From the NCBI GenBank assembly GCA_020848155.1, contig JADLAR010000017.1:6554-70553 (forward strand): a DNA stretch of 64,000 nt, in the 5' to 3' direction. The stretch comes from Candidatus Sumerlaeota bacterium (GTDB taxonomy: Bacteria; Sumerlaeota; Sumerlaeia; SLMS01). Shown here in pieces: positions 10,867 through 31,541 of this stretch (within the stretch, counting starts at the first letter, position 1; the number at the start of each line of letters is the position of its first letter). The position numbers and the translations under genes are program-made. The notes below the pieces were generated by a model. It had not been told where the DNA came from and did not search any database. It worked only from the letters and a program-made list of their open reading frames with translations.

Positions 10867-11915
10867 TGAGTGGCGGCGGTTTCATCTTCCCCCAGGTGCT
10901 GTGGGGCCTTCTCGCGCTCGTGCCGCTTGTCGCGTTGTGGAGTTGGATCAGTTCGCGTCGCGAGGATGTCGTTGCACGCTTCGTGGTGCGTGAGAACTGG
11001 CCCCTCCTGAATCGCACCGTGTCGAAGAGCGCGCGCTTTCACCGCAGCGTCCTCATCATCATCGCGCTTTCCGCGTCCATCGTCGCCGCCGCCCGTCCTT
11101 GGTGGGGCAGCCGCGAGCGCCATCTCAGTTCGCGCGGAGTCAATGTCGTCTTCGCGATCGACGTCAGCAAGTCGATGGCAGCGGCGGACATCCTCCCCAA
11201 TCGCCTTGAAGCGGCGAAGCGCATCGTGCGCCAGGTGCTGCCCGAAATTCATGGCAATTGCGTCGGCATCATGCCCTTCGCCGGCGAAGCATTCCTTCAA
11301 TGCCCCCTGACCTCCGATTTCAGCATCGCGCAGGATGTCTTGCAGAAGCTCGATTTCGGCGCCGTCAGTTATCAGGGCACGGACATCCCACAGCTTCTCA
11401 ACACTGCCGAATCCATCTTCCTCCGCTCCGGTGCCGGAAGCCGCGCCCTTGTCATCATCACGGACGGAGAGGACCATTCCGATGCCCTCGCCGAGGCTGT
11501 CGAACGGGCCGCGAAGGAGAACATCCGCATCTATGCGCTCGGAATCGGGACCCCCGCCGGCGCTCCCCTTCGTATGCCGGACGGCTCCTACATCGAGGAT
11601 TCCGAAGGGCACAAAATCAATTCCAAGCTCAATACCGAGGTCCTCAAGGAACTCGCCGACAAGACTGGTGGCAGCGCCTACATTGCCGGTGAGACCGGGA
11701 ATCTGGATGTTGGCCCGCTCATCAACGACCTGCAAGGCCTCGCGAAGGGCGATCTGGGCGAGATGAAGCGCGTCGTGCACGAGGAGCGCTACCAGTGGCC
11801 GCTCGCCCTCGCGATCCTGTGCCTGCTGATCGAGCCCTTGATTCGGGAACGACGATCCGACAGCATCCGCAAATCACGTCCCGCACAGGAAAAGAAGGGA
11901 GCCGCATCCGCATGA
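10866..11915 (+). CDS. batB: BatB, vWA-domain membrane protein
   Basis: 349 aa with a vWA MIDAS motif (AIDVSKSM ... IITDGEDH). Its start overlaps the batA stop. Confidence 0.85.
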   Translation: MSGGGFIFPQVLWGLLALVPLVALWSWISSRREDVVARFVVRENWPLLNRTVSKSARFHRSVLIIIALSASIVAAARPWWGSRERHLSSRGVNVVFAIDVSKSMAAADILPNRLEAAKRIVRQVLPEIHGNCVGIMPFAGEAFLQCPLTSDFSIAQDVLQKLDFGAVSYQGTDIPQLLNTAESIFLRSGAGSRALVIITDGEDHSDALAEAVERAAKENIRIYALGIGTPAGAPLRMPDGSYIEDSEGHKINSKLNTEVLKELADKTGGSAYIAGETGNLDVGPLINDLQGLAKGDLGEMKRVVHEERYQWPLALAILCLLIEPLIRERRSDSIRKSRPAQEKKGAASA

Positions 11916-17097: not shown

Positions 17098-19851
17098 CTA
17101 AAAGATCTTGTACTTGATTTCGATCTCTTCGTCGCTGCGGCCATCCGGTTCGCGTGGCTGTTCTGCCAACGGCTTCGGATTCCCCGTCCCCGAGGGTGGC
17201 GAAAATGCCGGAAAGGGTGCAGGGTCATTCTTCGGGGCGCCACCCGGCAGTGGATTCTGGTCACCGGACAAACTTCCGCGGCTGGATCGCCGCGCTGGCG
17301 GGCCGCCTCCGCCGGAAATTCCCAAGATGGAACCAAGCCTCTCTGTCATACCGCCGGGGAAGGCCGTATCGGGACGACTTCCTGATCCTGTTCCTGATCC
17401 GCGGGAACCCGGCGAAATATCCCCGCGGCTTCCCGGCCGCGGAACATCCGGGCGGGAAACGGACTGGCGGGATGCCGCCGGAGCCAACGGATCCAATTTC
17501 GGCGTCGCTTCCTTTGAGGCTCCCGGATTCGGGATTCCGGGGAGGTTGAAGAATCCGCTCTGCCCGGGGCTTGGCGCTGCGGGCGTTTGCGCCACACCGG
17601 AGGCCCCGGCGGGCTTCAACAAATCCGCGCGACTGGTGCGCAACGGAGTCTTGTCCGTCAGGCCCAATGCGCTCATCAACCCGCCGCCGATTCCACCCAG
17701 CGCCGCTTCCTCGGGAACATCGGCGTCCGCGTAGTACACCGGATCATGCAGCCATTCGTTGTCGGCTTCGTCCTGCGCCGAATCAACGACACGCGTGGAA
17801 GTTTTCAGGAGGCGATGTTGAATCTGGGCGTACTTGAACAAACCACCCGTCATCGCGTTGCTCAGGCTTAGGAACATTCCCTTCGGTTGCCACCAATCCG
17901 TGTGGAACAGAAGCCCCGCTGCCATCCCTTCGCGCCCGTTGTACTGGCCATCCTCCCGCACAACAAGCTGCTGTGCAAACAGGCGCGCATCCTCCGCCCG
18001 TGAACGATAGTAATCGTCGCCGATGAAATTCGCCAGCTTCACCATCTCGCGATAGCTGATCAGCCCCTGGCACCCCGTGGCGGGTGATGCGACGGAAGTG
18101 ATGTCGCCACCGCGGGTCGCAATCTCGTAACGCCCCAGCATCGAATTGCGCGTGAACGCCACGTTGTAGCTGAAACGCCAGGTCAGCGCCAGATCCGCCG
18201 CCTTCTTTGCGAGGGCCAGCCACTTCGTGTCGCGATCGAGTTCGTACAGGTTGATGTAGGCGACCAGCGCCCAATGACAATCATCGCTCGTGGGCACGCA
18301 GTTCAAGTCTTCAACGGTTCCATACAGCAGCCCATTGCGGACAAACTTTGCGTAGTAGTCGCCCGCCTTGATCGCAACTTCGCGGAAATGCGGCTTCTGT
18401 AGCAGCGACGAGCCCGTTGCGAACGCAGCGATCCACGGAAGCCCTCCGCATCCATCGAAACTTGTGGGGCGACCTGTCGTCAGGTCGTAATAACATGGAA
18501 ATGCGCCGTCATCGCGCTGTGCGCCCATGGCATAATTCAGCGACGACAAGGCCGCTTCGTACCATTGATGGTGATTCGTGCTGTTCCTGATCTCCAGTCC
18601 CAGCGATCGCAGGATGAACAGCACCGCCTCCGCCACCGTGCGCGAATGCGCCGTTCCGTCCTCCGGTCCGAAGCTGCACGACCATCCGTTCTCCTCTGTC
18701 CACGCCGGGAAGATCGTCCCCCCCGGTGCGATTGCCCCCGTGAATTTGTTCAGGATGGCGACGCCGGCGTTGATCGACTCCACGTGCTTCGATTCACGCC
18801 CCGCATGGAGCAACGCGTAGGCAGGCAAGGCCCCGCTCAACCAGCCCGCGTGCATGTGCGCGCGTTCCGTGTACGCACCCTTGCGCCCGAAGTGCCGGTC
18901 AAACGATGCGCTTTCGTAAAGCGCCGCCTGGCGGCTGTCGAAGTGCCAGCGCAAAAGCCCTGCGTGCGCCACCTGCTCCTGTTCCTCCAGGGGAGCCGCA
19001 GCCTTCGCTGGCGGATTTTCCTTCTCATCCGCATAGTAGAGATACCGAACAACCCTGCCATGCGCGTGAAGGTCCGGTTGATCGATGCCCGCCAGAAAGG
19101 TCGTCACCATCGGCGTCGCCTTCGGCAGGACCACGAAGGTCTCTTCCGGTTCGATCTTGTCCTCATGGCAGAATGAAAATTTCACCGGCACTTCGCGGTA
19201 GGGAAAATCCACCCCCAGCGTTGGCTGCCCTTCCTCCGACCCGAAGTGCAGCCCCGTCATTCCAACGCCTTCGGGGTTCTCGCGCGTTCGCCCGAAGACC
19301 CCCTGGGTGGAAACGTAACCGAAGCACCCGTACGTCCATGCACACACAAGCGGCGTCGCGGCGCGATCCGAGCGGAGCGCCCAATTATTTGAAACCAGCT
19401 TGCGCAGGTCCCGGTTTATTTCAGAGTAGGTTGGGTAGACACGCGTGCTTCCCGGTGGCCTGTTGTTGCCATAGAACACGCCGGGCACAAGCCAGCGCGG
19501 ATCGGCCTCGCCCGTCAGGATCATCTGCGCAGAGACGCGAATTCGCATCTCATCAACGGCATTCTCCACCCGCATCTCAACCCGCAGCGCATCCAGTCCT
19601 TCCGCTGCTGCCGTGATGCGCCCATACAGGGCAAGCCGCTGCGAGGTGAAGCCGTGGAAATCCGCCGCGTTCGGTCCCGCCGGCACAAGCCGCTGGATCT
19701 GGAAGATCGCGGGCGGCGATCCAGCCTCCGTGATGGTGAACATCAACAGCGGCGTGACAATCACCGGCTGTGCGTCGCCGGTCCGCTGAAGGCGAAGGCC
19801 CCGCGATTCGAAGCTAAGCTGATATTTGCCGACCTGGACGGATGCGGGCAC
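17098..19851 (-). CDS. Large hypothetical protein: a ~690-aa Cys/Trp-rich globular region followed by a ~230-aa Pro/Gly/Ser-rich disordered tail
   Basis: 917-aa ORF with no N-terminal signal peptide. The globular part contains motifs such as DDCHWALVAYINLYELDRD, GCGGLPWIAAF and GWSCSFGPEDGTAHS. These may indicate an (alpha/alpha)-barrel hydrolase- or LanC-like fold, but no family can be assigned by eye. The C-terminal part (plus-strand coordinates ~17100-17800) is low-complexity PGSG-rich and ends EEIEIKYKIF. Confidence 0.6.
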   Translation of the reverse strand: MPASVQVGKYQLSFESRGLRLQRTGDAQPVIVTPLLMFTITEAGSPPAIFQIQRLVPAGPNAADFHGFTSQRLALYGRITAAAEGLDALRVEMRVENAVDEMRIRVSAQMILTGEADPRWLVPGVFYGNNRPPGSTRVYPTYSEINRDLRKLVSNNWALRSDRAATPLVCAWTYGCFGYVSTQGVFGRTRENPEGVGMTGLHFGSEEGQPTLGVDFPYREVPVKFSFCHEDKIEPEETFVVLPKATPMVTTFLAGIDQPDLHAHGRVVRYLYYADEKENPPAKAAAPLEEQEQVAHAGLLRWHFDSRQAALYESASFDRHFGRKGAYTERAHMHAGWLSGALPAYALLHAGRESKHVESINAGVAILNKFTGAIAPGGTIFPAWTEENGWSCSFGPEDGTAHSRTVAEAVLFILRSLGLEIRNSTNHHQWYEAALSSLNYAMGAQRDDGAFPCYYDLTTGRPTSFDGCGGLPWIAAFATGSSLLQKPHFREVAIKAGDYYAKFVRNGLLYGTVEDLNCVPTSDDCHWALVAYINLYELDRDTKWLALAKKAADLALTWRFSYNVAFTRNSMLGRYEIATRGGDITSVASPATGCQGLISYREMVKLANFIGDDYYRSRAEDARLFAQQLVVREDGQYNGREGMAAGLLFHTDWWQPKGMFLSLSNAMTGGLFKYAQIQHRLLKTSTRVVDSAQDEADNEWLHDPVYYADADVPEEAALGGIGGGLMSALGLTDKTPLRTSRADLLKPAGASGVAQTPAAPSPGQSGFFNLPGIPNPGASKEATPKLDPLAPAASRQSVSRPDVPRPGSRGDISPGSRGSGTGSGSRPDTAFPGGMTERLGSILGISGGGGPPARRSSRGSLSGDQNPLPGGAPKNDPAPFPAFSPPSGTGNPKPLAEQPREPDGRSDEEIEIKYKIF

Positions 19852-20026: not shown

Positions 20027-21130
20027 ATGCGCATCCTTTTTGTTTCCGACCAAGATCAATGCCGGGGCCCCATGGCGCGGGCCATCGCGGAGCGCATGGC
20101 CCGGCAGCAGATGATGGACAGCGCCGTCTTCGATTCCGCCGGCCTGCGAGCACCAGCCGGCGAACCTCCCACGCTCGAAGCCGCATCCTTCATGCACGGC
20201 GAAAAAATTTCCATCATCAACCATCGCAGCAAGCGCCTCACCGTTCCCCTCGTCGACGGTGCCGACGTCATCCTGTGCATGACCAAGGCCCAGATGGACG
20301 AGGCGCGCAAGGCTGCCGGCCCCGACTACGCACCCAAATTCGTCCAGATCAACGAGGCCGTCGACCTGACAACCACCCGCATGGACGTCATGCCACCCGG
20401 TCCCAATACCGCCGGCATGCGCCGACTTTACGCCGCCCTCAGCGCCACCATCGGCCGCCTCATTCGCACCCTTGAAGAACCCGACGCCTCACCCGAATAT
20501 TTCGGTGCGAAGACAATGCCCAAGAAGCTTCGGCCCGGTGCCGGCGGCGCAGGCCCCCGCGTCAGCGAAACCACACTCGATCCCGAAAAGCGCGTCTTCA
20601 TTGCGAACATGATCTTCAGCCTCATCGAACGCGCCTTCGAGCCAATGACCACCGGCGCCCTGCTCGATCAGCTTGCCGCCGCCGGGCACCAACTCCCCAA
20701 AGCCGAACTTGAGGAACTCCTGCGCCAGGACCTCCACGGCCTCGCGCGCATGGACAAGGATGGTGCCTGGAACATCATCCACGGCGCAGCCGAGCGCAAA
20801 CGCGACAAGGCCCGCGCCGAAGCACGCGCCCGCGCCGAGGACCAACGCAAAGCCCGCGAAGCCGAAAAGCCCAAGGATTTGGACAAGAACCTCACAGAGG
20901 ACGTCGCGTTTGAACTGCTCGGCATCAGGAAGGAAACCTCCCGCGCCGATGCCCAGAAAAAATACCGCGCACTCCTCAAGCGCTACCACCCCGATCGCTT
21001 CCACGACGACCCTTCATTCCTCGAAATGGCCGAGGCCAAGACCCGCCGCGTCAACGCGGCCTGGGAATTCTTGAAGGAACGCCTCCCGGAAGGCGAAGCC
21101 CCCCCCGAGGCGGAGGAAGTACAAAGTTAG
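20027..21130 (+). CDS. Fusion protein: N-terminal LMW-PTP/ArsC-like domain with a degenerate P-loop, and a C-terminal DnaJ J-domain
   Basis: The N-terminus MRILFVSDQDQCRGPMARAIAE aligns to the LMW-PTP P-loop (L/V)CxGNxCRSPxAEA. The nucleophile Cys is replaced by Ser while the second Cys and the Arg are kept. The C-terminus FELLGIRKETSRADAQKKYRALLKRYHPDRFHDD...VNAAWEFLKE is a J-domain with the HPD motif. Confidence 0.7.
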   Translation: MRILFVSDQDQCRGPMARAIAERMARQQMMDSAVFDSAGLRAPAGEPPTLEAASFMHGEKISIINHRSKRLTVPLVDGADVILCMTKAQMDEARKAAGPDYAPKFVQINEAVDLTTTRMDVMPPGPNTAGMRRLYAALSATIGRLIRTLEEPDASPEYFGAKTMPKKLRPGAGGAGPRVSETTLDPEKRVFIANMIFSLIERAFEPMTTGALLDQLAAAGHQLPKAELEELLRQDLHGLARMDKDGAWNIIHGAAERKRDKARAEARARAEDQRKAREAEKPKDLDKNLTEDVAFELLGIRKETSRADAQKKYRALLKRYHPDRFHDDPSFLEMAEAKTRRVNAAWEFLKERLPEGEAPPEAEEVQS

Positions 21131-21139
21131 GCGGCTCCC

Positions 21140-22351
21140 TCAGCCACAACGCTCGATCACCATCGCGATGCCCTGACCCACGCCGATGCACATTGTGCAG
21201 AGCGCACGCTGCTTGCCGGTTCGCGTAAGTTGTCGCGTGGCGGTGGTGAGCAAGCGCGCGCCGCTCATGCCGAGCGGATGACCCAGCGCGATGGCACCAC
21301 CGAGTGGGTTGATCCGCGGATCATCGTCGGCGAGCTTCAACGCCCGTGAACACGCGAGCGCCTGCACGGCAAAGGCCTCATTCAGTTCAATGATGTCCAT
21401 GGCATCGAGCGTAAGCCCCAGGCGCTGGAGTAATTTTTGGGTCGCCGGAACAGGGCCCATGCCCATTATCCGGGGCTGGACGCCGGCCGTGGCCGCGCCA
21501 ACGATTCGGGCACGAGGCACAAGGCCATGGCGCGTGGCCGCCGCGGCGGAGGCAATCAGCAGCGCCGCCGCCCCATCGTTGACACCGGATGCATTTCCAG
21601 CCGTGACGGTGCCGTCACTGCGAACGAAAGGTTTCAACTGTGCAAGTTTCTCGATCGATGACGGCCGCGGATGCTCGTCCTTTTCGACAACAACGGGATC
21701 GCCCTTCCTGCGCGGAATCGTGACGGGAATGATTTCCTCTGCAAGCTGCCCACCCTGCTGCGCGGCGGCCGCCTTCGTCTGGCTCCAACAGGCGAAGCGA
21801 TCCTGATCCTCGCGGGAGATGGCAAAGTCGACCGCGAGATTTTCCGCAGTCTCCGGCATTGAGTCGACGCCATGCGCCGACTTGATGCGGGGGTTGATGA
21901 AACGCCACCCGATCGTGGTGTCCTGAAGTTCGGCCTGTCGCGAAAATGGCTCGGCGGCTTTTCCCATGACGAAGGGGGCGCGCGACATGCTTTCCACGCC
22001 GCCAGCAAGGATCACCTCCGCCTCACCTGCGGCAATCGCGCGGGCCGCAGTGGCAACCGCATCCATGCCAGACCCACAAAGGCGATTCACAGTGACTGCG
22101 GAAACGCCCACGGGCAGGCCCGCCAGCAACGACGCCATGCGCGCCACGTTGCGATTGTCTTCACCCGCCTGATTCGCGCATCCCATGATCACGTCATCAA
22201 GCGCGTCCCAATCCATCCTGGCATTGCGATCCATCAATGCGCGAATGGGAATTGCGGCAAGGTCGTCCGTGCGCACCGAGGACAACCCCTCGCCATAACG
22301 GCCAACGGGGGTGCGAATCGCATCGCAGATAAAGACGTCTTTCATGGTCAT
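21140..22351 (-). CDS. Acetyl-CoA C-acyltransferase (thiolase II, 3-oxoadipyl-CoA/acetoacetyl-CoA thiolase-like)
   Basis: 403 aa with thiolase signatures (VNRLCGSGMDAV around the catalytic Cys; C-terminal NEAFAVQALA and GGAIALGHPLGMSGAR; final CIGVGQG). Confidence 0.9.
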   Translation of the reverse strand: MTMKDVFICDAIRTPVGRYGEGLSSVRTDDLAAIPIRALMDRNARMDWDALDDVIMGCANQAGEDNRNVARMASLLAGLPVGVSAVTVNRLCGSGMDAVATAARAIAAGEAEVILAGGVESMSRAPFVMGKAAEPFSRQAELQDTTIGWRFINPRIKSAHGVDSMPETAENLAVDFAISREDQDRFACWSQTKAAAAQQGGQLAEEIIPVTIPRRKGDPVVVEKDEHPRPSSIEKLAQLKPFVRSDGTVTAGNASGVNDGAAALLIASAAAATRHGLVPRARIVGAATAGVQPRIMGMGPVPATQKLLQRLGLTLDAMDIIELNEAFAVQALACSRALKLADDDPRINPLGGAIALGHPLGMSGARLLTTATRQLTRTGKQRALCTMCIGVGQGIAMVIERCG

Positions 22352-23688
22352 GCCCGCGCTGCCACCGTCATTGCCGGAATCTGCTTCGCGATCAGTTGGA
22401 AGCCCCTCTGAAGCTCAACGCAGAGTTGATCGATTTCCACCTCTGTCATCGGCGTCGAAATGGTGCCGGAGCAGGTGTTGATCAGCATGAATCCATGATT
22501 GAACATGTGGTCGAGAAGCGTTCGAACTGCCGTGGCCTCGTTGGGATTCGCATAGGCGGCACGATAATCGGCAGGTGGTTCGGGCTTCATGTGAATGCGG
22601 AACATCGACCCGGCACCGGTCACACAGGCGGAAACTCCCTCGGCATTGATGATTTCTGCAATCTGGCGGCGCGCACGCTCACCAAGGGCATTGAGACGAG
22701 CAACCTCCCCACGGTCAAACAGGCGCATTGCCGCGAGGCCCGCGGACAAGGTCACCGGATTGGCGGAGAATGTGCCCGAATGCGGAAAGAGCACCTTGTC
22801 CGCCAGCGGATTCAACACATCCATCACGTCTGCACGCCCGGTGATGGCGCCGACGGGAAACCCACCGCCAATCGCCTTGCCGAGCGCCGTCAAGTCGGGG
22901 CGTTGCCGGTACCACTCCTGCGCTCCACCATACTCCGACCTGAATGTGATCACTTCATCAAAGATGAGCAACGCGCCATTGCGTCGTGTCCATCCATGAA
23001 GTGCCTCGATGAAGTCCGCAGAGGCGGGAACCATTCCCACGCGGTGGGGAATCGGATCAATCAGCACGGCCGCCAGGTCGGATCGATGTTGATCGAGAAG
23101 CGCTAGGGCGCGCACCGAATCGTTGAAGGGAAGGATGACAACCTCATCCAATGCGGAGGCCGGGGTTCCTGCGGTGACGGGAACGCTGCGCGGATGCGCA
23201 GCCTCCCCCCAGTTTGCGGGGCTGGCCGTCTGGCTGACTTCCGCATAATCGTAAAGCCCGTGATAGGCGCCCTCGACCTTGGCGATCTTCGGACGCGACG
23301 TGAATGCACGCGCCGCCTTGAGGCAGCACATGATCCCCTCGGTCCCTGAATTCACGAAGCGTATCTTTTCAAAGCTCTGGGAGCGCCCCACCATGTGTTC
23401 GGCAAACTCGACCTCCACCTCCGTGGCGAGCGTGTACGCCGTGCCGCGGTGAAGTTGTTCGGTCACGGCGGCGATGATTGCCGGATGCGCGTGGCCGTGA
23501 ATGAGCGAAGCCATGTTGTTTGCAAAGTCGATGCGGCAATTGCCGTCGATGTCGGTCACGCGGCATCCCTCGCCATGCGCCGCGTAGGCGGGATGGGGCT
23601 TGCGAAGAACCGCGTTTCGGCTGACTCCGCCGGGAAGGACCTTCAGTGCACGCTCGTAGAGATGCTCACTGCGTGTTTGACCCTTCAT
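22348..23688 (-). CDS. Class-III PLP aminotransferase/aminomutase, HemL (glutamate-1-semialdehyde 2,1-aminomutase)-like
   Basis: 446 aa. The N-terminus SEHLYERALKVLPGGVSRNA resembles the HemL N-terminus, and the rest has class-III aminotransferase architecture. It overlaps the neighbouring genes by 4 bp on each side. Confidence 0.8.
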   Translation of the reverse strand: MKGQTRSEHLYERALKVLPGGVSRNAVLRKPHPAYAAHGEGCRVTDIDGNCRIDFANNMASLIHGHAHPAIIAAVTEQLHRGTAYTLATEVEVEFAEHMVGRSQSFEKIRFVNSGTEGIMCCLKAARAFTSRPKIAKVEGAYHGLYDYAEVSQTASPANWGEAAHPRSVPVTAGTPASALDEVVILPFNDSVRALALLDQHRSDLAAVLIDPIPHRVGMVPASADFIEALHGWTRRNGALLIFDEVITFRSEYGGAQEWYRQRPDLTALGKAIGGGFPVGAITGRADVMDVLNPLADKVLFPHSGTFSANPVTLSAGLAAMRLFDRGEVARLNALGERARRQIAEIINAEGVSACVTGAGSMFRIHMKPEPPADYRAAYANPNEATAVRTLLDHMFNHGFMLINTCSGTISTPMTEVEIDQLCVELQRGFQLIAKQIPAMTVAARA

Positions 23689-24374
23689 TGTGATTCGCTC
23701 CTGGGGCGTCCATCGATGATTGGCGCGCCGGTCTTTTCCTGAAGTTCCCTGAATGTGATCCCCGGCGCGATTTCCTGCGCCACGAAACCTTCCGGCGTCA
23801 CATCAATGATCGCGAGGTTTGTATAGACACGATCAACCACGCCGCATCCGGTCAGTGGATACGTGCATTCGGCAACAAGCTTTGGTTCCCCGGTTTTCGT
23901 CGTATGCTCCGTCAGGATCACGACGCGCTTAACCCCCGCCACCAGATCCATGGCACCGCCGACAGCGGGAATCGCATCGGCCTCCCCCGTGGACCAGTTC
24001 GCAAGGTCGCCGCGCGACGACACCTGCATTGCACCCAGGACGCTCACGTCAAGGTGTCCGCCCCTGATCATTGCAAAGCTGTCGGCGTGATGGAAGTAGG
24101 CGGCACCGGCAATCGCCGTGACCGGCTTCTTCCCCGCATTGATCAACTCGGGATCCTCACTGCCGGCGGCGGGCGAAGGCCCCACGCCGAGCAACCCGTT
24201 CTCCGTGTGAAAGATGACCTCGTGATCCGGAGGCACATGCTGGGTGACCAGTTCGGGAATACCGATTCCCAGGTTCACATACGCACCATCGTGGATGTCA
24301 CGCGCGGCAAGGCGCGCCATGTCGTGGCGCGACCATCCCGTTGGTTGTTGGCTTGGCTGGCTCATGGGTAGCAC
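23685..24374 (-). CDS. 3-oxoacid CoA-transferase subunit B
   Basis: 229 aa, conserved throughout with CoA-transferase beta subunits (GIGIPELV ... ENGLLGVGP ... SFAMIRGGHLDVSVLGA). Confidence 0.9.
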   Translation of the reverse strand: MLPMSQPSQQPTGWSRHDMARLAARDIHDGAYVNLGIGIPELVTQHVPPDHEVIFHTENGLLGVGPSPAAGSEDPELINAGKKPVTAIAGAAYFHHADSFAMIRGGHLDVSVLGAMQVSSRGDLANWSTGEADAIPAVGGAMDLVAGVKRVVILTEHTTKTGEPKLVAECTYPLTGCGVVDRVYTNLAIIDVTPEGFVAQEIAPGITFRELQEKTGAPIIDGRPRSESQ

Positions 24375-25072
24375 CTGCCTTCCTTCACCAGGTGTGATTC
24401 CTGTTCCGGGCAGGGCACCTCCACCAGGCGCTGGACAAAAATTCCCGGCGTCACGACTGCTTCCGGATCAATGCAACCGGACTCCACGACCTGGCGCACC
24501 TGCACGATGGCGACCTTGGCGGCCATGCACATGATCGGCCCAAAATTCCGCGCCGTCTTTGTATAGACAAGGTTGCCATGGCGGTCCCCCCGGTCGGCGC
24601 GAACCAATGCAAAGTCCGCCCGCAACCCGCGCTCCATCACATAATCGCGACCATCAAAGGTGCGCCGCTCCTTGCCCTCGCCAAGCTGCGTTCCCACCGC
24701 CGTGGCCGTGAAAAACGCCGGGATTCCGGCACCGCCGGCCCGAATCCGCTCCGCCAGGGTTCCCTGCGGCACGAGTTCCAATTCGATCTTCCCCGCACGA
24801 TAAAGCTCGGGAAAAACCATCGAGTTCGTACTTCGTGGATACGAGCAGATCATCCGCGCGACCTGCCCATTCGCGATCAATGCCGCGAGGCCAACCCGCC
24901 CGCTCCCGGTGTTGTTGCTGATCACCGTCAGGTTGCGGGACCCCTTGTCCACCAAGGCGTGGATCAATTCAATGGGGCTTCCCGCTTCACCAAACCCCCC
25001 GATCATTACCGAGGCCCCGTCCCCTATGTCTGCCACCGCATCGGCCGGTGAACTCCACCTTTTCTGGATCAT
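24362..25072 (-). CDS. 3-oxoacid CoA-transferase subunit A
   Basis: 236 aa, conserved with CoA-transferase alpha subunits (GASVMIGGFGEAGSPIELIHAL ... SNNTGSG). Confidence 0.9.
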   Translation of the reverse strand: MIQKRWSSPADAVADIGDGASVMIGGFGEAGSPIELIHALVDKGSRNLTVISNNTGSGRVGLAALIANGQVARMICSYPRSTNSMVFPELYRAGKIELELVPQGTLAERIRAGGAGIPAFFTATAVGTQLGEGKERRTFDGRDYVMERGLRADFALVRADRGDRHGNLVYTKTARNFGPIMCMAAKVAIVQVRQVVESGCIDPEAVVTPGIFVQRLVEVPCPEQESHLVKEGRCYP

Positions 25073-26673
25073 GTAAGTCCTTGTTGAGCCATGCGCTTGC
25101 CGTGAACTTCCTCCAAGGCGTGCTCGATTTCGTCAAGCTCCTCCTCAAAGAAGAACTTGTCCGTATCGAGCGGCAGCAGGCGATCCACGCGGTTTTCATG
25201 TTCATCATAGACCGCAAGGAACACCTTGTCCATCCACGCCATGTTGCGCGCTTCGTTGAACTTCAGCGCCAATGCCTTGCGCCCACCAACGGTTGCCTCG
25301 CCCAGGATTGAAAGCTTGCCTGCGGAGGTGGTCATCGTAATGTAGCGCGAGGGGCGATGCAGCGACGCCAGCGACCGGTAAATGAGGTTGGAAATCTTCT
25401 CGATGTCGGCAAGCGGCGCCGCGAAATAGTGATGCTCGCCCGTTGGACGCGCACAATACATCGAGTGAAACCGGATCAGCAGCGTCGCAAGGATGTTCCC
25501 AAGGTCGATCCAGTTCTGTGCAGACCGCTTGATGTCCGTCTTCCCATCCGCGTCCATGAACAGGCTCACGTGATTCATGATGGGGCTTTGGCTGCGCACC
25601 ACCACGCCGTGTGCCTGCAACCGGCGCACCGCCGCGATGGTCGTCGGGTTTAGCAGTTCACGCGGCGTCGAGAAATGCGCCATCCACGACAACTGCACGC
25701 CATTCTCGTGCATGATGTCGAACAGTTCCAGGATCTTGCCGTAGCGCTCGGTCAGAATCATGTCCGGCTGGTACGTCAACGCCCGCGAGGCGATACGGAC
25801 CGTGCGGATGTGCAGCAGCGCCGGATCCTCGATGATCGGCATCACATACTGGCGCATCCGCTCATAGGGCAGGTACCCCGCATCACCACCCGTGATCAGC
25901 AGGTCCGTCACCTCTGTGTGCTTGCGCAGGTAATCGTGGATCTGCGCGATGTCATCCTGGATGAACATGTCCCGGTCACCACGCACCTGGGCATGGCGGA
26001 AGCAATACGTGCAGAACGCAAAACACGTCTGCGTGGACTTGTCGAAAACCAACTGGGTCTGCGGATACTTGTGCTGGCTGCCCTCAACGATCTCGATGCC
26101 ACCATCCTCGCGCTCAAGCCACGGCTTGTTCAGGAGCTGATGCCCATCGTGCGGATTCGTCTGGTCCATGTACTGCTCAACAACGATCGCGCGCGCCTCC
26201 GGTGTTCCCGCCGCCGCATACTTTGCCACGATCTCGGGCCGCATCATTCCCGGCTGGGGAAAGATCAACTGGTACAGGGAATCGTTCTCGTAGCGGCTCC
26301 AGTTGATCGCGTTCAGAATGTGACTCGTCGCCTTGAATCGATACACCTCCACGAACAATTCGCGCTCGATGACATTGCCAAGGTGTATGCCGTTCTCCCT
26401 CAGGACCCCCAACACACGGCGAAAGCCCTCCAGCCCCTCATACTGGGCCCGTTCCGGAAACAGGACGGCACTCGTTTCCATCAAACCCGACAGGTGGGGA
26501 TACGTCGCGTGCAGGCGCGCCAGCAGCCCCCGTGGCAGTAGACGCTCGCGCTGGATGATGGCGCGAATTTCCTGCGGATAGCCATAGCGCTCCATCATCG
26601 CCTCGATATCGGACTCGGTCATCCTGGCCGAAATCGTGTCCTGCGGCGATGGAAGCGTGGTACTCTTATTCAT
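25069..26673 (-). CDS. KamA-family radical-SAM aminomutase (lysine/glutamate 2,3-aminomutase-like) with a ~130-aa N-terminal extension
   Basis: The Cx3Cx2C cluster CFAFCTYCFRH and downstream KamA-family blocks are present. The start is placed at MNKSTT (26673); the track ORF extends to 26781. It overlaps the CoA-transferase A start by 4 bp. Confidence 0.8.
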   Translation of the reverse strand: MNKSTTLPSPQDTISARMTESDIEAMMERYGYPQEIRAIIQRERLLPRGLLARLHATYPHLSGLMETSAVLFPERAQYEGLEGFRRVLGVLRENGIHLGNVIERELFVEVYRFKATSHILNAINWSRYENDSLYQLIFPQPGMMRPEIVAKYAAAGTPEARAIVVEQYMDQTNPHDGHQLLNKPWLEREDGGIEIVEGSQHKYPQTQLVFDKSTQTCFAFCTYCFRHAQVRGDRDMFIQDDIAQIHDYLRKHTEVTDLLITGGDAGYLPYERMRQYVMPIIEDPALLHIRTVRIASRALTYQPDMILTERYGKILELFDIMHENGVQLSWMAHFSTPRELLNPTTIAAVRRLQAHGVVVRSQSPIMNHVSLFMDADGKTDIKRSAQNWIDLGNILATLLIRFHSMYCARPTGEHHYFAAPLADIEKISNLIYRSLASLHRPSRYITMTTSAGKLSILGEATVGGRKALALKFNEARNMAWMDKVFLAVYDEHENRVDRLLPLDTDKFFFEEELDEIEHALEEVHGKRMAQQGLT

Positions 26674-26804
26674 GATAGAAACTCCGGTGCTCAGCTTAAA
26701 AAACCACGGGCAACGATACGATCGTTCGCTCCAACCCTTGCGGTGCGCAAGGAGAAACGGAATCCCCGCCTCGGAACGCACAACAAGCCCCGGTAGAAAT
26801 CGAC

Positions 26805-27033: not shown

Positions 27034-27528
27034 TTATATAGCCCGCCCCAGAACGAATCTTGCGCGCTCTCGACGCAGCATCTCATACGGGGTTACGCAG
27101 GTGATCCCCAACCCAATGCAGACATCGGGGATCTTGATCTTCCGGATCGAGGACGAAGGAACTTCATGCGTCACCACGATGTGGCCGCCTGCGTGCGCCT
27201 GCGCGGCAAGGTAGTAGTCCGCCACTTGGAGGAAGTTGGCGATGGCTGCGGGCTCGTAGTGCCGGCCGGTTGTCCATTCGCTCACCGACCGAAATGACGG
27301 CGCGACTGTCCCGTCTGGCGGCACGAAGAACGAAGGTCCTCGCACGTCCGCCCATTCGGACAGTTCGTCCTCAACATCACGCAACTCGTAGCCCACTTTC
27401 TCCACGCTGAAGACCGAGCCTGCGCGGTGACGCTCGACGAGCCACTCCCAGAAGGCCGGACAGAAGTCGAACCCATAGTGGAGATTCTTTGCGCTGATGA
27501 AGACGTTGGCGTCGAGGAGGTATGCCAT
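27034..27528 (-). CDS. DUF4411-family protein, predicted PIN-like nuclease domain
   Basis: 164 aa beginning MAYLLDANVFISAKNLHYGFDFCPAFWEWL..., the typical DUF4411 N-terminus with a PIN-like acidic D in LLDAN. It lies 1 bp downstream of the XRE-ImmA gene. Confidence 0.7.
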   Translation of the reverse strand: MAYLLDANVFISAKNLHYGFDFCPAFWEWLVERHRAGSVFSVEKVGYELRDVEDELSEWADVRGPSFFVPPDGTVAPSFRSVSEWTTGRHYEPAAIANFLQVADYYLAAQAHAGGHIVVTHEVPSSSIRKIKIPDVCIGLGITCVTPYEMLRRERARFVLGRAI

Positions 27529-27529
27529 T

Positions 27530-28678
27530 TCAGAACCTCATTCCAAACCCGGCGCTCAGGCGGCGAAACGTCGACATCTTCCTGAAGCCGAGCATTCGGA
27601 ATGCCTCGGTGAAACTCGAACGCCCCTCCAATGTGCTAACTACCACGGCCCGCGCGAATCGCTTGCCAACCCGGGCGCCGAGCGTGTTGTAAAAGCTCCC
27701 CCCACCCTCCGTCTGAGCGGAGAGCGCTTGAAGCCGAGCGAGTTCCGCCCGAAAGGCGGTCCTGTAATCTTCGCGAGACAGCCCTCCAGCATCGTGGATT
27801 CGACGCAGAATGACAAGCCTGCTGACCTTGAAGACCCGCGCCAGACGATCAAGCTCCCCGGGCAATTCCGCAGCGGGGTTGTAGGTCCTGCGGAACACCA
27901 GCATCGGAACCAGCAGTTCCGCTGCGACCGCGTCGCACCAACGCTCGACATTGTGGCTGGGGGCCGTTGTCAGTTCCACATCAGAAAGCGCAGATTGTCC
28001 GACCCAAATGTGCGCGAGTTCGTGGGCGAGGGTGAACATCTGCGCGGACTTTGTATCCGACCCATTCACGAAGACTAGCGGCGCGTTCGCATCGACCAGA
28101 GCGAACCCCCTAAACTCCTTTGGGTTGAGCTTGCGATGATTGTCGCTTCCGACCACTCCGCTGACCATCACCAGCACTCCCGCAGCGTCCACCAGTTCGA
28201 TGAACCGCCGCAGGGCATCGGTCCAATTCGACATCCGGCTTCGCTCCTCCAAGTCAAAACTGAGTGTCGCCCGCATTTGGGCCGCTGTTTCCACCACATC
28301 ATTGTTCGGGGAGGCGGAGCCGACAAATGGGATTGGCGGTTCCCCCACCGTCCGGGCGAATTCGCGATACCAATCCTGGCGCTGTTGACAGAGATAGATC
28401 GTGTCCAACAGGTCGGGGCTGGGTGCGGTGAAGCGCTCGCCGGGCATCGTTCGGAAATCGGGGACGGGGATTTGTTCCTGCGGAGGTTCCGCGAGGAAAA
28501 GATAACCAACCGGCACATGCACGGCCTTGGCAAAACTTTCCAACTGCTTCATCGTGGGCATGGCCTCGCCACGCTCCCACATCGGCAGCTTGGCGAATCG
28601 CCCGGCGAGCGATTCGAGGTCATGCCCGGTGCGTTCCCGCGCCCAGCGGAGGAGTCCTGGCTGTACTTCTACACGCAT
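27530..28678 (-). CDS. XRE-family HTH domain fused to an ImmA/IrrE-family zinc metallopeptidase
   Basis: An N-terminal HTH-like region is followed by the HEXXH motif HELAHIW and conserved ImmA/IrrE blocks (FTLAHELAH ... ERWCDAVAAELLVP). The start is assigned to MRVEVQ (28678); the track ORF extends to 28705. Confidence 0.8.
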   Translation of the reverse strand: MRVEVQPGLLRWARERTGHDLESLAGRFAKLPMWERGEAMPTMKQLESFAKAVHVPVGYLFLAEPPQEQIPVPDFRTMPGERFTAPSPDLLDTIYLCQQRQDWYREFARTVGEPPIPFVGSASPNNDVVETAAQMRATLSFDLEERSRMSNWTDALRRFIELVDAAGVLVMVSGVVGSDNHRKLNPKEFRGFALVDANAPLVFVNGSDTKSAQMFTLAHELAHIWVGQSALSDVELTTAPSHNVERWCDAVAAELLVPMLVFRRTYNPAAELPGELDRLARVFKVSRLVILRRIHDAGGLSREDYRTAFRAELARLQALSAQTEGGGSFYNTLGARVGKRFARAVVVSTLEGRSSFTEAFRMLGFRKMSTFRRLSAGFGMRF

Positions 28679-28857
28679 CACGCTGGCATTACGCCTTCCT
28701 TGCACCTTATGTCCACCCTACCTTTCCTTATCCACGCGCCACAGAGTTCGCGTCCCAACTCCGCCTGGGATGCCCTTCGGCGAGTTCATGCCGCACCACG
28801 TCGAAAGTAAATCAAGCCAAGAGTTCGGTCGCGGGACTCGTCCTTGGCTCGGTAGAA

Positions 28858-28950
28858 GACCCACATCCTCAGGGTGGGATATGTGATGCCCCCTTTTTCT
28901 GTACCATGGGGAGTGAGGGTTTTCGTGGTTCGCGGCCGGTGGGGCGCGGG
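28858..28950. repeat. Right copy, in inverted orientation, of the repeat flanking the DUF4411/ImmA cassette
   Basis: The reverse complement of 28889-28945 is ~80% identical to 26817-26875. The hairpin is degraded to a 4-5-bp stem in this copy. Confidence 0.55.
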
Positions 28951-29165
28951 GCCGTGGCGGTCTCCCCTGCGTTCATTTTGGGCAAGGTCAGGCTGGCAGC
29001 AAGCGTTGCGGCTGTCAAGTAGCCCAGCCAGGAGTGGGGCGGTGCTTGTTGCATGCCTCGCGCCGGTCGCCGCCGATCACGCCAATGTCCTTCATGCCGG
29101 TGTTTTCCCCTAGCGGCATGGCCCCTTACCCGGTAGGCACCTGCTATTCCTGATCAGGAGACTGG

Positions 29166-31541
29166 GTGAGCTTGAGTTTCATCAGACATTTCTGCCTGGC
29201 AACCGTCCTTCCCGGATTGTTGCTCGCGTCTCCATCCGTTTTCGCCCAGGACGCCGCACGTTCCCCCGCCTCCTCCATCACGGCGCTGGCTCCATCGCGC
29301 GAGGCCCTGCCCCCCAATGGGGCGCAAATCCGGGATATTCGCGTGGAGGGTGCCAACCGCGTTTCCCCGAACGAGATCCTGGCCCGCATGGAACTGCGCG
29401 CCAACGGTGCCTTCGATGCGGACGCGTATCGCCGCGATCTTCAGTCCATTTCCGATTCGGGAAAGATCAATCCGCTCACGCTGAGGATCGATTGGGAGAC
29501 GGCACCCGATGGCGCGGTGAACCTGATCGTGCACGTGCAGGAAAATCCCGTCATCAACACCATCACGATCGTTGGCAATGATCGCTTCAGCCAGAAGACG
29601 CTGATCGCGCAGCTCGACTACAAGATCGGCGATGTGGTGCCGACGGCGGTGCGCTCCTCCACCGTTCGCAATTTTGAAAATTTTTACAAGAATGGTGGAT
29701 ACAAGGCATCGAAGATCACCGTGACCAGCGAGCCGGTTGCGGATGCGCCCGGGGCGGTGGACATCCTCATTGTCATCGACGAAGGCATCCGTGTGAAAGT
29801 CCGCAGCCTTGTCATCAATGGGAACAGGCATTTCAGCGACTTCTATATTTCGACGCAGTTGACCAACGCCCGCGGCATCCTGTTCTTCAACAACTACTTT
29901 GATGAATCGGCGATGGAGGACGACCTGGCCATCGTGCGCGGGATGTATGAAAGCGCAGGGTTCCTTGATGTGAAGGTCTCCCGCAGCGGCCTCGTTTACA
30001 ACGAGGACAAGAAAGCCGTCACGGTGATGATCGACGTTGTGGAAGGGCCGCGCTACACGGTTACCGGCGTCAGGACGGAGGGTGTGACATCGCTGACGCG
30101 TTCCGAAATCGACAAGAGCACGGTTGAGCTTCCGCGTCGCCACTTCAATGGCAAGCGCCTGGCAAAGGCGCTTGATCGCGTTCGCCGAATCTACGGCGAC
30201 CAGGGCTACGTGGACAACGAGGTCAGCTACCGACTCGACAAAAGCCCGGAGAACCAGACGGTTTCGATCGTCATGCAGGTGGCCGAGGCCCCCGTCGTCT
30301 ACGTCGGGCAGGTGCGCATGAAAAAAGAGGAGTATCCCTACAATGTGGACTCCAAGCCCCTGAGCAAGTTCATCGGTTGGTTTGCGCCGCCAACAAAGGA
30401 TGAAACGGTGATGCGGGAGGTTCGGCTGAAGCCGGGCCAAAAATACCGCAGCGCGGATGAAGTGCGCACCATCGAGCGGCTCAAGAACCTTGGCATCTTC
30501 CGGCGGGTGGAGGTGAATCGCGATCCCACAGCGCAACCAAGTGTGCGCGACGCGGTTGTGAACGTGGAGCAGGACCCCAACGCGGCCTTCATTGGCGCGA
30601 TGGCCGGCATCGGCGAATCGTCCGGCCCGGCGCTCACCGTGCAACTGATGCAGCCGAATTTCAACGGGCGCGCCGATCGCTTCAATGCTTCGGCGACCAT
30701 TGGAACACGCAGCCTTGGCTATCGCATTGGCTTCTTCGATCGCTATCTGGGCGATTCGGACACGTCGATGGATACGAACCTGTACTACCTGACGGATCGC
30801 TATCGCGAGTACCGCGAAAGGACGCTCGGCGCATCGACTGAGTTTGGCCGTCCGCTGAGCGAGTATGTGCGTGGGTACCTTAGGTTCCGCGCGGAATACG
30901 TCAGTTATTCGGACTTTGATGAGGACGAGACGGAGGAGGATTTTGGCAGCTATCCGGTGTTGGCGGTGCGCCCCTCGGTGGTGTACGACCGGCGCGACAA
31001 TGCTGCCTGGGCAACGCGCGGATACCTGGTGGGTGGTGGCATCGAGACGGGCATGGCGGATGGCTTCCTGCTGAAGTTCATGCACAGTTACGAATGGTAC
31101 AAGAAGCCGTTCGAGCGGAACGACCTGATCTACGCGTATGAGCACACGGTGGGGCTGATGCCATACGATGCGACAAACATCGGATTGAGCGAGCGCTTCT
31201 TCGTGGGCGGCTCGGGAAGCCTGCGGGGCTTCCAGTATCGCGAAGTCGGCCCGCGCGATCGCAAGAATGAGGACCTGGCCATCGGTGGTGCCACGCGCAT
31301 CACGCAGCGCCACGAGCTGCGCTATCCCTTCAATGACTTCATCAAGGGACGTGTCTTCACGGACTTTGCGATCCTTGAGCGCGGCCCGTTTGCGCTGGGC
31401 ACACCGCGCATGGGCAGCGGCGTCGGCGTGATCCTGGACTTCGGCGCGATCACTGCGGAGGTCGACCTTGCGGTGCCGGTGATCAGGAAGAGCACCGACA
31501 AGGCGCAGTATTTCCACATCCGGGTTGGTAGCGGCTTCTGA
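29166..31541 (+). CDS. bamA: Outer membrane protein assembly factor BamA (Omp85) with POTRA domains
   Basis: 791 aa with a signal peptide, POTRA-repeat regions and a C-terminal beta-barrel that ends HIRVGSGF with a terminal aromatic residue. Confidence 0.9.
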   Translation: MSLSFIRHFCLATVLPGLLLASPSVFAQDAARSPASSITALAPSREALPPNGAQIRDIRVEGANRVSPNEILARMELRANGAFDADAYRRDLQSISDSGKINPLTLRIDWETAPDGAVNLIVHVQENPVINTITIVGNDRFSQKTLIAQLDYKIGDVVPTAVRSSTVRNFENFYKNGGYKASKITVTSEPVADAPGAVDILIVIDEGIRVKVRSLVINGNRHFSDFYISTQLTNARGILFFNNYFDESAMEDDLAIVRGMYESAGFLDVKVSRSGLVYNEDKKAVTVMIDVVEGPRYTVTGVRTEGVTSLTRSEIDKSTVELPRRHFNGKRLAKALDRVRRIYGDQGYVDNEVSYRLDKSPENQTVSIVMQVAEAPVVYVGQVRMKKEEYPYNVDSKPLSKFIGWFAPPTKDETVMREVRLKPGQKYRSADEVRTIERLKNLGIFRRVEVNRDPTAQPSVRDAVVNVEQDPNAAFIGAMAGIGESSGPALTVQLMQPNFNGRADRFNASATIGTRSLGYRIGFFDRYLGDSDTSMDTNLYYLTDRYREYRERTLGASTEFGRPLSEYVRGYLRFRAEYVSYSDFDEDETEEDFGSYPVLAVRPSVVYDRRDNAAWATRGYLVGGGIETGMADGFLLKFMHSYEWYKKPFERNDLIYAYEHTVGLMPYDATNIGLSERFFVGGSGSLRGFQYREVGPRDRKNEDLAIGGATRITQRHELRYPFNDFIKGRVFTDFAILERGPFALGTPRMGSGVGVILDFGAITAEVDLAVPVIRKSTDKAQYFHIRVGSGF

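Follow-up and report, generated by a model that had tools for sequence, protein, structure and literature searches.

A Sumerlaeota protein family couples a predicted inactive LMW-PTP-fold domain to a C-terminal J-domain: a putative phospho-directed co-chaperone

What might a phosphatase domain that has apparently lost its catalytic residues be doing in one polypeptide with a domain that recruits Hsp70 (DnaK)? This question is raised by a gene in a stretch of 64,000 nucleotides from Candidatus Sumerlaeota bacterium (assembly GCA_020848155.1, contig JADLAR010000017.1, positions 6,554 to 70,553 of the forward strand), which was analyzed as a whole and is referred to here as the window. The gene occupies 20027..21130 on the + strand and encodes 367 amino acids (aa) from an ATG start; according to the list of open reading frames (ORFs), an in-frame extension further upstream is impossible. 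A preliminary description, made from the sequence alone, had read it as a fusion of a degenerate domain, of the type of the protein tyrosine phosphatases of low molecular weight (LMW-PTP) or of ArsC, with a J-domain, and its coordinates, strand and length agree with the ORF list. An AlphaFold2 (AF2) model, built from a 24-sequence family alignment, resolves five segments (mean predicted local distance difference test score, pLDDT, 83), and its predicted template modelling score (pTM) of 0.49 fits domains that are joined flexibly. The same architecture is found in 23 close and about 15 divergent homologs. The features of the gene are as follows.

20027..21130 (+), whole gene: class C J-domain protein with a putatively dead LMW-PTP domain, linker, winged helix, charged helix and J-domain
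20027..20476 (+), LMW-PTP-fold domain, YwlE-like and predicted to be catalytically degenerate: residues 1-150 (Pfam, PDB phmmer, Foldseek, AF2)
20045..20071 (+), remodelled P-loop S7-D-Q-D10-Q-C12-R13-G14-P15, canonically C-x-G-N-x-C-R-S-P: verified at the DNA level
20378..20401 (+), former general-acid loop RMDVMPPG, aligning to GDVLDPFG of YwlE: the Asp of the canonical D-P-[YF] is missing
20477..20581 (+), flexible linker: residues 151-185, with a conserved PEYFGAK motif and a Gly/Pro/basic stretch
20582..20782 (+), acidic winged-helix domain: residues 186-252, no identifiable family
20783..20896 (+), long charged helix: residues 253-290, helix 254-287 in the model
20897..21082 (+), J-domain: residues 291-352 (Pfam, NCBIfam, PDB, AF2)
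20987..20995 (+), HPD motif H321-P322-D323 within KRYHPDRFHDD: translation checked at the DNA level

The N-terminal 150 residues are predicted to adopt the LMW-PTP fold, with protein arginine phosphatases of the YwlE type as their nearest relatives. Residues 3-122 score 54.8 bits (E = 1.5e-14) with the Pfam profile LMWPc (PF01451), whose gathering cutoff is 23.2, and this domain is present in all 23 close homologs. When PDB sequences were searched with phmmer, the best relatives were the T. tengcongensis LMW-PTP 4egs (7.9e-10) and B. subtilis YwlE (8e-8), followed by J-domains. The model shows an alpha/beta domain with pLDDT 84-96 across residues 1-150. Its top Foldseek matches in the PDB were the C7S mutant of YwlE (4kk4) and wild-type YwlE (4kk3), with a template modelling score on the target, TM(target), of 0.92 and a root-mean-square deviation (rmsd) of 1.6-1.8 Å (4kk4 alone: TM 0.92, rmsd 1.6 Å), and the next were 4egs, G. 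stearothermophilus YwlE, YfkJ, Wzb and Drosophila DARP. TM(target) was 0.82-0.93 to more than 40 solved LMW-PTPs, and the four-stranded parallel-sheet fold with the P-loop between beta1 and alpha1 is present. Structure prediction, which had been proposed as a check, thus supports both the LMW-PTP-fold and the J-domain assignment. The nearest canonical sequences carry the P-loop C-T-G-N-T-C-R-S with Thr at position 5, a residue that is described in PMC7772506 as the determinant of phospho-arginine (pArg) specificity, Ile being found there in phospho-tyrosine (pTyr) phosphatases. No canonical LMW-PTP gene was found in the window or in the family loci.

The former active site was assessed in 40 non-redundant members aligned with YwlE and canonical LMW-PTPs, and positions are given in YwlE numbering. 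The first 22 residues of the window protein read MRILFVSDQDQCRGPMARAIAE, as the preliminary description had them. Compared with a canonical P-loop, they show Cys7 changed to Ser, Gly9 to Gln, Asn10 to Asp and Ser14 to Gly, with Cys12 and Arg13 retained. The alignment therefore bears out the exchange of the nucleophilic Cys for Ser and of the Gly-Asn pair for Gln-Asp, both of which had been noticed before. That the second Cys and the Arg are kept is true of the window protein and, for Arg13, of 40/40 members, but the second Cys is not a feature of the family, as position 12 is Cys in 30/40 and Val, Ile, Phe or His in the other 10. Cys12 thus cannot be the nucleophile of the family and was ruled out as a substitute for Cys7.

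At position 7 itself, Ser is found in 38 of the 40 members, and the sole exceptions are one Thr (P0030) and one Cys (P0031). Position 10, Asn in YwlE, is Asp in 39 members and Cys in one. The thiolate-stabilising Ser/Thr of position 14 occurs in 0/40 (Gly in 37, Ala in three), Pro15 is present in 40/40, and Ser36 in YwlE numbering (Ser37) is Ser in 39/40. Position 11, which is position 5 of the P-loop, varies widely (L14/R11/Q7/V3/E3/I1/S1), with Gln and not Thr in the window protein. The general-acid motif, whose state the preliminary description had left to be checked, lacks its Asp throughout: position 118 is Pro in 19, Ala in five and Arg in four members, with other residues in the rest and Asp in 0/40 (Pro123 in the window protein). 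The equivalent of position 115, Asp120 of the window protein, is Asp in 39/40 and Asn in one, and it represents a conserved residue specific to this family. Two losses, the change of Ser14 to Gly and that of the general-acid Asp, thus go beyond those described earlier. Within the first 160 residues of the fusion protein, Cys occurs only at positions 12 and 84.

Against this background of loss, the remaining pocket is well preserved. Arg13, Pro15 and the scaffold residues D10, S37, G39 and H66 rank with the protein's most conserved positions, and pocket residues are among the few positions with at least 85-95% conservation in a family whose median pairwise identity is 38%. From these patterns, the nucleophile, the activating Ser/Thr and the general acid have been lost together family-wide, with the residues of the phosphate cradle kept under strong purifying selection. 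This strengthens the earlier suggestion of a pseudophosphatase or a phospho-binding domain of altered chemistry, which is the best supported reading of the domain.

Codon usage gives further information on position 7. A switch between the AGY and TCN serine codons needs two substitutions and passes through Thr (ACY) or Cys (TGY). Among 19 genomic loci, Ser7 is encoded by AGC/AGT in 14 and by TCC/TCT/TCA in five, with both codon families in both clades, and Arg13 is encoded by five different codons. As the exceptions at position 7 are precisely the obligatory intermediates Thr and Cys, the Ser7 side chain is selected rather than drifting: Ser has been re-fixed repeatedly, and the protein requires this residue for its function. 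The simplest view of the lone Cys7 of P0031 is that it arose secondarily rather than being an ancestral relic. If the position were purely structural, Ala or Gly would be expected there as well.

A different natural replacement of the LMW-PTP nucleophile was seen in P0044 and P0046, two metagenomic proteins outside the window, which are the closest LMWPc proteins that do not belong to the family. Here the nucleophile Cys is replaced by Asp (VLF[IV]-D-T-G-D-N-C-R-[AC]-P), the D-P general-acid motif is retained, and long C-terminal tails rich in Lys/Ala/Pro follow.

In the deposited annotations, this remodelled P-loop is partly hidden. The NCBI protein of the window gene (P0001, 352 aa) begins at Met16 (nucleotide 20072), and the same start ('MARAIAE') was chosen in about nine other gene calls of the family (P0009, P0012, P0016, P0019-P0023, P0024), which cuts off beta-strand 1 and the entire P-loop. 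However, the 15 codons upstream of Met16 are conserved at the protein level with synonymous variation in 19/19 genomes examined, and 20027 is therefore the real start. The Met16 starts are thus systematic start-codon errors that conceal the key motif. Upstream of the fusion genes there is no conserved motif and no convincing sigma-70 promoter or terminator, and no CIRCE-like repeat was found near the gene (best candidate with at least 7/18 mismatches).

As had been proposed, the C-terminal part forms a J-domain whose HPD motif is intact. Pfam DnaJ (PF00226) matches residues 295-351 (E = 1.3e-9, 38.4 bits against a cutoff of 27.8), which like the LMWPc match is well beyond what chance would give, PDB J-domains match at 1e-4 to 1e-5 in the sequence search, and the modelled helices 291-298, 306-319 and 329-349 flank the HPD. 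The family signature reads Y-H-P-D-[KR]-F-H-D-D, and among 35 members Y320, H321, P322, D323, F325, D327 and D328 are each at least 95% conserved. As the J-domain is C-terminal and Pfam finds neither DnaJ_C nor CXXCXGXG in the fusion protein, it belongs to class C and not to the class A/B Hsp40 proteins; the NCBIfam DnaJ score is 29 bits against cutoffs of 338-377. The best NCBIfam match is the C-terminus of DjlA (1.8e-9, residues 267-351). An identity as DjlA was rejected, as the J-domain region alone matches and reaches 37.6 bits against an equivalog cutoff of 162, and HscB was rejected likewise, with a match of the J-domain alone far below the family cutoffs. In the Sumerlaeota contig L002, canonical DnaJ and ClpX are encoded within 7 kb, and a DnaK system is therefore expected in the phylum.

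Between the two terminal domains, the linker has pLDDT below 50 at residues 171-182, its Gly/Pro/basic part, from about residue 160 to 185, being disordered in the AF2 model, and G160 is at least 95% conserved. The following domain, modelled alone, folds with pLDDT 93 into the topology H-H-H-E-E and is a generic winged helix. Its Foldseek matches in the PDB (IclR/BlcR, BlaI-like Rv1846c, ScpB, Fur/Zur, the Z-alpha domain of ZBP1 and the cullin WHB) are weak, with TM scores on the query of 0.62-0.76 and E of at least 0.009, and Pfam has no match for it. An EF-hand, for which a PDB profile search gave marginal helix fragments only (E of at least 0.01), was judged spurious, and a guess at HARE-HTH was unsupported, with RpoE ranked 50th by Foldseek. 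As the domain is acidic (net charge -3, with the third helix KAELEELLRQDLH), DNA binding is unlikely. In P0037 and P0039 (L060 and L061, from the divergent branch), two tandem winged helices lie between the putatively dead phosphatase domain and the J-domain (hhalign E = 4e-5), which suggests a modular binding unit of changeable copy number. The charged helix is the least conserved segment (mean conservation 0.38) and varies in length, making it a candidate spacer or coiled coil.

How far the fusion spreads was also raised in the preliminary description, and all members that can be assigned to an organism are from Sumerlaeota. A word-indexed search of 5.8 billion proteins returned 23 homologs with 47-100% identity, all of the LMWPc+DnaJ type and with Candidatus Sumerlaeota as the only organism name. 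An exhaustive profile search of 1.84 billion cluster representatives gave 19 proteins at E of at most 1e-30; scores then drop from 1e-42 to 1e-21, and single-domain LMW-PTPs or J-proteins are found below the drop. Among 185,579 species-representative genomes there are 16 full-length loci, 14 labelled Sumerlaeota/Sumerlaeia and two labelled just 'bacterium', and every match assigned to another phylum involves the J-domain alone. The most divergent named branch, P0038, is Sumerlaeia as well, and pairwise identity in the family goes down to 30%. The family is thus small, old and, as far as named records show, restricted to Sumerlaeota. The domain pair is already visible in databases, since some members are automatically annotated as 'protein-tyrosine-phosphatase/DnaJ-domain-containing protein'. 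In our literature search, one query of which was poorly framed, no paper turned up on a fusion of an LMW-PTP with a J-domain or on Sumerlaeota and McsB. To our knowledge no bacterial LMW-PTP pseudophosphatase has been described, and none was found in the literature search. The main text of a survey of about 280,000 J-domain proteins makes no mention of a phosphatase partner (PMC10410713). The fusion is a class C J-domain protein whose targeting module had not been described before, and it appears to contain a bacterial LMW-PTP pseudophosphatase.

How could these parts work together? In the reading that we favor, and to which we give about an even chance, the fusion protein is a Sumerlaeota-specific class C co-chaperone that targets DnaK by means of a phosphate pocket unable to hydrolyse what it binds, a natural 'substrate trap'. 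The pocket would still hold a phosphoryl group without hydrolysing it, and the domain would behave like the engineered Cys-to-Ser or Asp-to-Ala 'substrate-trapping' mutants of phosphatases. The ligand would likely be on a protein, plausibly pArg given the ancestry of the domain and otherwise pTyr. The acidic winged helix could provide a second contact, with protein and probably not with DNA, while the J-domain, at the end of the flexible linker and charged helix, would dock on DnaK-ATP and trigger ATP hydrolysis. DnaK might then clamp the bound client or act at the bound site. Overall, the protein would serve as a reader of a phospho-mark that directs Hsp70; both phospho-ligand binding and DnaK stimulation are inferred here.

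A narrower version of this idea would be a natural pArg (or pTyr) 'reader', derived from a YwlE-type phosphatase, which hands phospho-marked proteins to DnaK for unfolding or refolding. We consider it doubtful in this specific form. Judging by its title, the study of Trentini et al. 2014 (listed in PMC9604228 and PMC8370763) enriched pArg proteins with a 'phosphatase trap' derived from YwlE, and M. smegmatis, in which no McsB homolog is known, contains pArg (PMC9604228). Position 5 of the P-loop is L/R/Q/V/E instead of Thr, so that pArg specificity cannot be read from the sequence.

Several further observations weigh, like this one, against a phosphate-reading co-chaperone. P-loop positions 8-9 are usually acidic, with Asp/Glu at position 8 in 30/40 members, which might disfavor an anionic ligand. 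The pocket is read from a sequence alignment, and Asp120 might be a relocated general acid, leaving room for residual chemistry. Neither a family-wide operon partner (kinase, chaperone or protease) nor a consistently nearby kinase, DnaK, GrpE or Clp gene emerged when the neighborhoods of 22 loci were compared.

One possible alternative, fairly unlikely in our view, is that the LMW-PTP fold works independently of phosphate as a protein-protein or oligomerisation module for a specific client, such as the product of the neighboring gene described below, its former active-site residues being conserved for fold stability or for the binding of a non-phosphorylated partner. The acidic residues at P-loop positions 8-10 are consistent with such a scaffold, as are conserved family-specific residues outside the pocket (G143, R144 and R147 in the last helix, F35 and M85). 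However, the invariance of Arg13 across five codons, the retained Asp10-Ser37-His66 network that shapes the phosphate cradle and the limitation of position 7 to S/T/C speak against it, since Ala, Gly or Lys would be tolerated at these positions in a pure scaffold.

The neighboring gene in question, which had correctly been described as divergently transcribed, is the following.

17098..19851 (-), 917-aa neighbor, divergent from the fusion gene at 20027 (+): globular core of about 700 aa and P/G/S-rich disordered tail of about 200 aa

Its ORF is separated from the fusion gene by 175 bp. Homologs with 49-83% identity lie directly upstream of the fusion gene, in divergent orientation, in L002/L003, L006, L007, L009 and L010; in L001 the homolog is adjacent on the same strand, and the adjacency has thus outlived an inversion. 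This neighborhood with a protein carrying a long disordered tail, which recurs in seven loci of the closer clade even past the inversion, again fits a scaffold. On the other hand, the homolog is not adjacent in L004/L005, L008 or the whole divergent clade L013-L021, so that the linkage is a clade-level lead and not a property of the family, and the core family, which is uncharacterised, occurs in phyla without the fusion, being widespread in Gaiellaceae, Deinococcus (D. peraridilitoris), Scopulibacillus and Limnocylindrales. The P/G/S-rich tail of about 200 aa is found in the Sumerlaeota versions only, and its last 60 aa or so are conserved (...EEIEIKYKIF). The 917-aa protein has no sequence match in Pfam, NCBIfam or the PDB, and a PDB profile search gave a non-significant match to a LanC-like alpha/alpha-repeat (E = 0.08). 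A role as partner or client of the fusion protein is possible but unproven.

As a second alternative, Ser7 itself might be a phospho-acceptor or sensor. A high-energy phosphoramidate donor, either a pArg protein or a small phosphodonor, would phosphorylate it in one turnover, and the phospho-Ser7, long-lived without a general acid/base, would switch co-chaperone activity or the choice of partner. That a Ser in this fold can accept a phosphoryl group is indicated by the title of PDB entry 4kk4, 'YwlE arginine phosphatase - C7S mutant with phosphorylated active site serine'. Moreover, position 7 is selected for Ser/Thr/Cys and is never Ala or Gly, and there is no general acid to activate water for dephosphorylation. 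The change of Ser14 to Gly, however, removes a residue that aids the nucleophile, and the hydroxyl may be selected simply to hydrogen-bond a bound phosphate. We regard a phospho-acceptor as distinctly unlikely.

It is highly unlikely that the domain is an active phosphatase of a non-canonical kind, with Ser7 (or Cys12) as nucleophile, Asp120 as relocated general acid and a J-domain that tethers the enzyme to DnaK or to DnaK-bound clients for dephosphorylation. Asp120 does lie within the loop that normally holds the general acid and is present in 39/40 members, and P0031 has a Cys at position 7. In addition, Drosophila LMW-PTPs that were once called pseudophosphatases proved active (PMC7772506), a caution against inferring a dead domain from nothing but its sequence. 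In contrast to the fusion family, however, the Drosophila proteins in question have kept the catalytic Cys. The C7S mutant of YwlE has no phosphatase activity in vitro or in vivo (bioRxiv 10.1101/2022.09.15.508104). Ser14, needed for activation of the nucleophile, is Gly/Ala in 40/40, Cys12 is replaced in a quarter of the members, and Asp120 aligns three residues upstream of the catalytic Asp in the sequence alignment.

The last alternative, an ArsC-type arsenate reductase module fused to a J-domain, is effectively refuted, and with it the 'ArsC-like' half of the earlier label: thioredoxin-coupled ArsC shares the LMW-PTP fold and NCBIfam PRK13530 gives a weak match (E = 0.045, 14 bits against a cutoff of 215), but the redox triad Cys10/Cys82/Cys89 (pI258 numbering, from a reference sequence whose numbering agrees with the positions in the literature) aligns to Ser/Thr/Val-Ile, one of the only two Cys in the first 160 residues is replaced in 10/40 members, and no ars genes lie nearby.

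No gene next to the fusion is shared by the whole family. In the window it stands alone on the + strand, flanked by two minus-strand units. The upstream unit encodes BatA/VWA, TPR, BatD and TPR/SH3 proteins, uridine kinase, LspA, DUF2905 and the 917-aa protein; the downstream unit is convergent, follows after a gap of 9 bp and encodes a thiolase, a class-III aminotransferase, CoA-transferase A/B and a KamA-like radical-SAM protein. Neighbors in four to six loci of the divergent clade are a CxxCxxCC protein, NusA, a TPR protein and GATase, and in three loci of the most divergent branch CarAB, ResB/CcsA/ETF and other unrelated genes.

Some other features of the window were noted in passing. The five genes of the downstream unit (21140-26781, -; thiolase, class-III aminotransferase, CoA-transferase subunits B and A, KamA-family radical-SAM aminomutase-like protein) look like a pathway for amino-acid (lysine-type) fermentation or for beta-amino acids, and the KamA-family protein (570 aa) has an unusually long N-terminal extension of about 220 aa. 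Between this operon and BamA, adjacent genes for DUF4411 (164 aa, E = 4.8e-50) and IrrE/Peptidase_M78 (391 aa) at 27034-28705 (-) resemble a toxin-antitoxin or stress-response module. The GC skew flips at about 28700-29600, being negative from 1 to 29.5 kb and positive thereafter with a cumulative minimum near 29-30 kb, and where it flips the genes change strand and the IrrE-like gene and BamA diverge from an intergenic region of 460 bp. A replication origin at this site is not established, as DnaA-box matches in the window show no enrichment (six, one of them at 28728, versus 5.35 expected). Further downstream, a 1117-aa protein with a GH18 (chitinase-type) domain (35057-38410, +) adjoins a sodium:solute symporter and fits the polysaccharide- or chitin-degrading lifestyle that has been proposed for Sumerlaeota. 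The ORFs at 31616-33142 (508 aa) and 10713-11780 (355 aa) have no Pfam or NCBIfam match.

The place of Hsp70 action is set by class C J-domain proteins, and we know of almost no bacterial representative beyond DjlA and HscB that has a known target. In the present family the targeting module is recognisable and the class of its likely ligand, a phosphoryl group, can be guessed from first principles, making the question experimentally tractable. In evolutionary terms the family is also a clear case of a pseudoenzyme in which selection on the old active site remains strong, and it exposes a systematic annotation error. Interest is limited by its confinement to an uncultivated phylum. If the natural pArg (or pTyr) reader outlined above is real, it would be a chaperone-directed counterpart of the Firmicute pathway from pArg to degradation by ClpC/ClpP, arginine or tyrosine phosphorylation would be a proteostasis tag in a Gram-negative-type candidate phylum far from the Firmicutes, and the domain would be the first bacterial LMW-PTP pseudophosphatase with a defined role. 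A pocket that reads pArg or pTyr would link phospho-marks to DnaK, beyond ClpC/ClpP, and could provide a naturally optimised non-hydrolysing binder, an enrichment reagent like the engineered YwlE trap.

Among known systems, the YwlE/PtpB/DARP arginine phosphatases share with the N-terminal domain the fold (TM 0.92, rmsd 1.6 Å, about 27% identity), the length, the order of secondary-structure elements, the start M-x-I-L-F-V, the P-loop register with Arg13 and Pro15, and the DSAG and H-R-S-K motifs. The fusion differs in Cys7 (Ser), Gly9/Asn10 (x/Asp), the variable position of Thr11, Ser14 (Gly) and the absent Asp118. YwlE is a stand-alone enzyme of 150 aa, whereas the fusion adds a winged helix and a J-domain, and its phosphatase-like domain corresponds to the engineered inactive YwlE C7S and not to the active enzyme. 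Similar losses are known from STYX, MK-STYX and the D2 domains of receptor PTPs, in which the catalytic Cys is gone and the fold and phosphate cradle are retained, and such pseudophosphatases are proposed or shown to be phospho-binding or scaffolding modules (PMC4257672, PMC7772506). Those proteins, however, belong to the classical/dual-specificity branch of folds, are eukaryotic and are not fused to chaperone-recruiting domains. With bacterial class C J-domain proteins (DjlA, HscB, CbpA-like and others), the fusion has in common a J-domain with HPD and a non-DnaJ targeting module, and with DjlA also the C-terminal position of the J-domain. It lacks a transmembrane segment and stays far below the DjlA cutoff, and its targeting modules, an apparently dead LMW-PTP domain and a winged helix, go unmentioned in the main text of PMC10410713.

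The closest functional parallel is eukaryotic. In auxilin (DNAJC6) and GAK, a PTEN-like sensor of phospho-lipids that has no catalytic activity is joined to a C-terminal J-domain for the recruitment of Hsc70 (bioRxiv 10.1101/718726), and they share with the fusion protein the logic of an inactive domain of the Cys-phosphatase superfamily, a middle region for client binding and a J-domain at the C-terminus. In contrast to the LMW-PTP fold described here, their phosphatase-like domain is of the PTEN/dual-specificity type with C2, and both their ligand (phosphoinositides) and their client (clathrin) are known. As there is no sequence relationship outside the J-domain, the resemblance is convergent, and by this analogy the fusion protein is best read as a prokaryotic functional analogue of auxilin/GAK. 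If its pocket indeed reads pArg or pTyr, bacteria would have evolved the same combination of a dead phosphatase and a J-domain independently.

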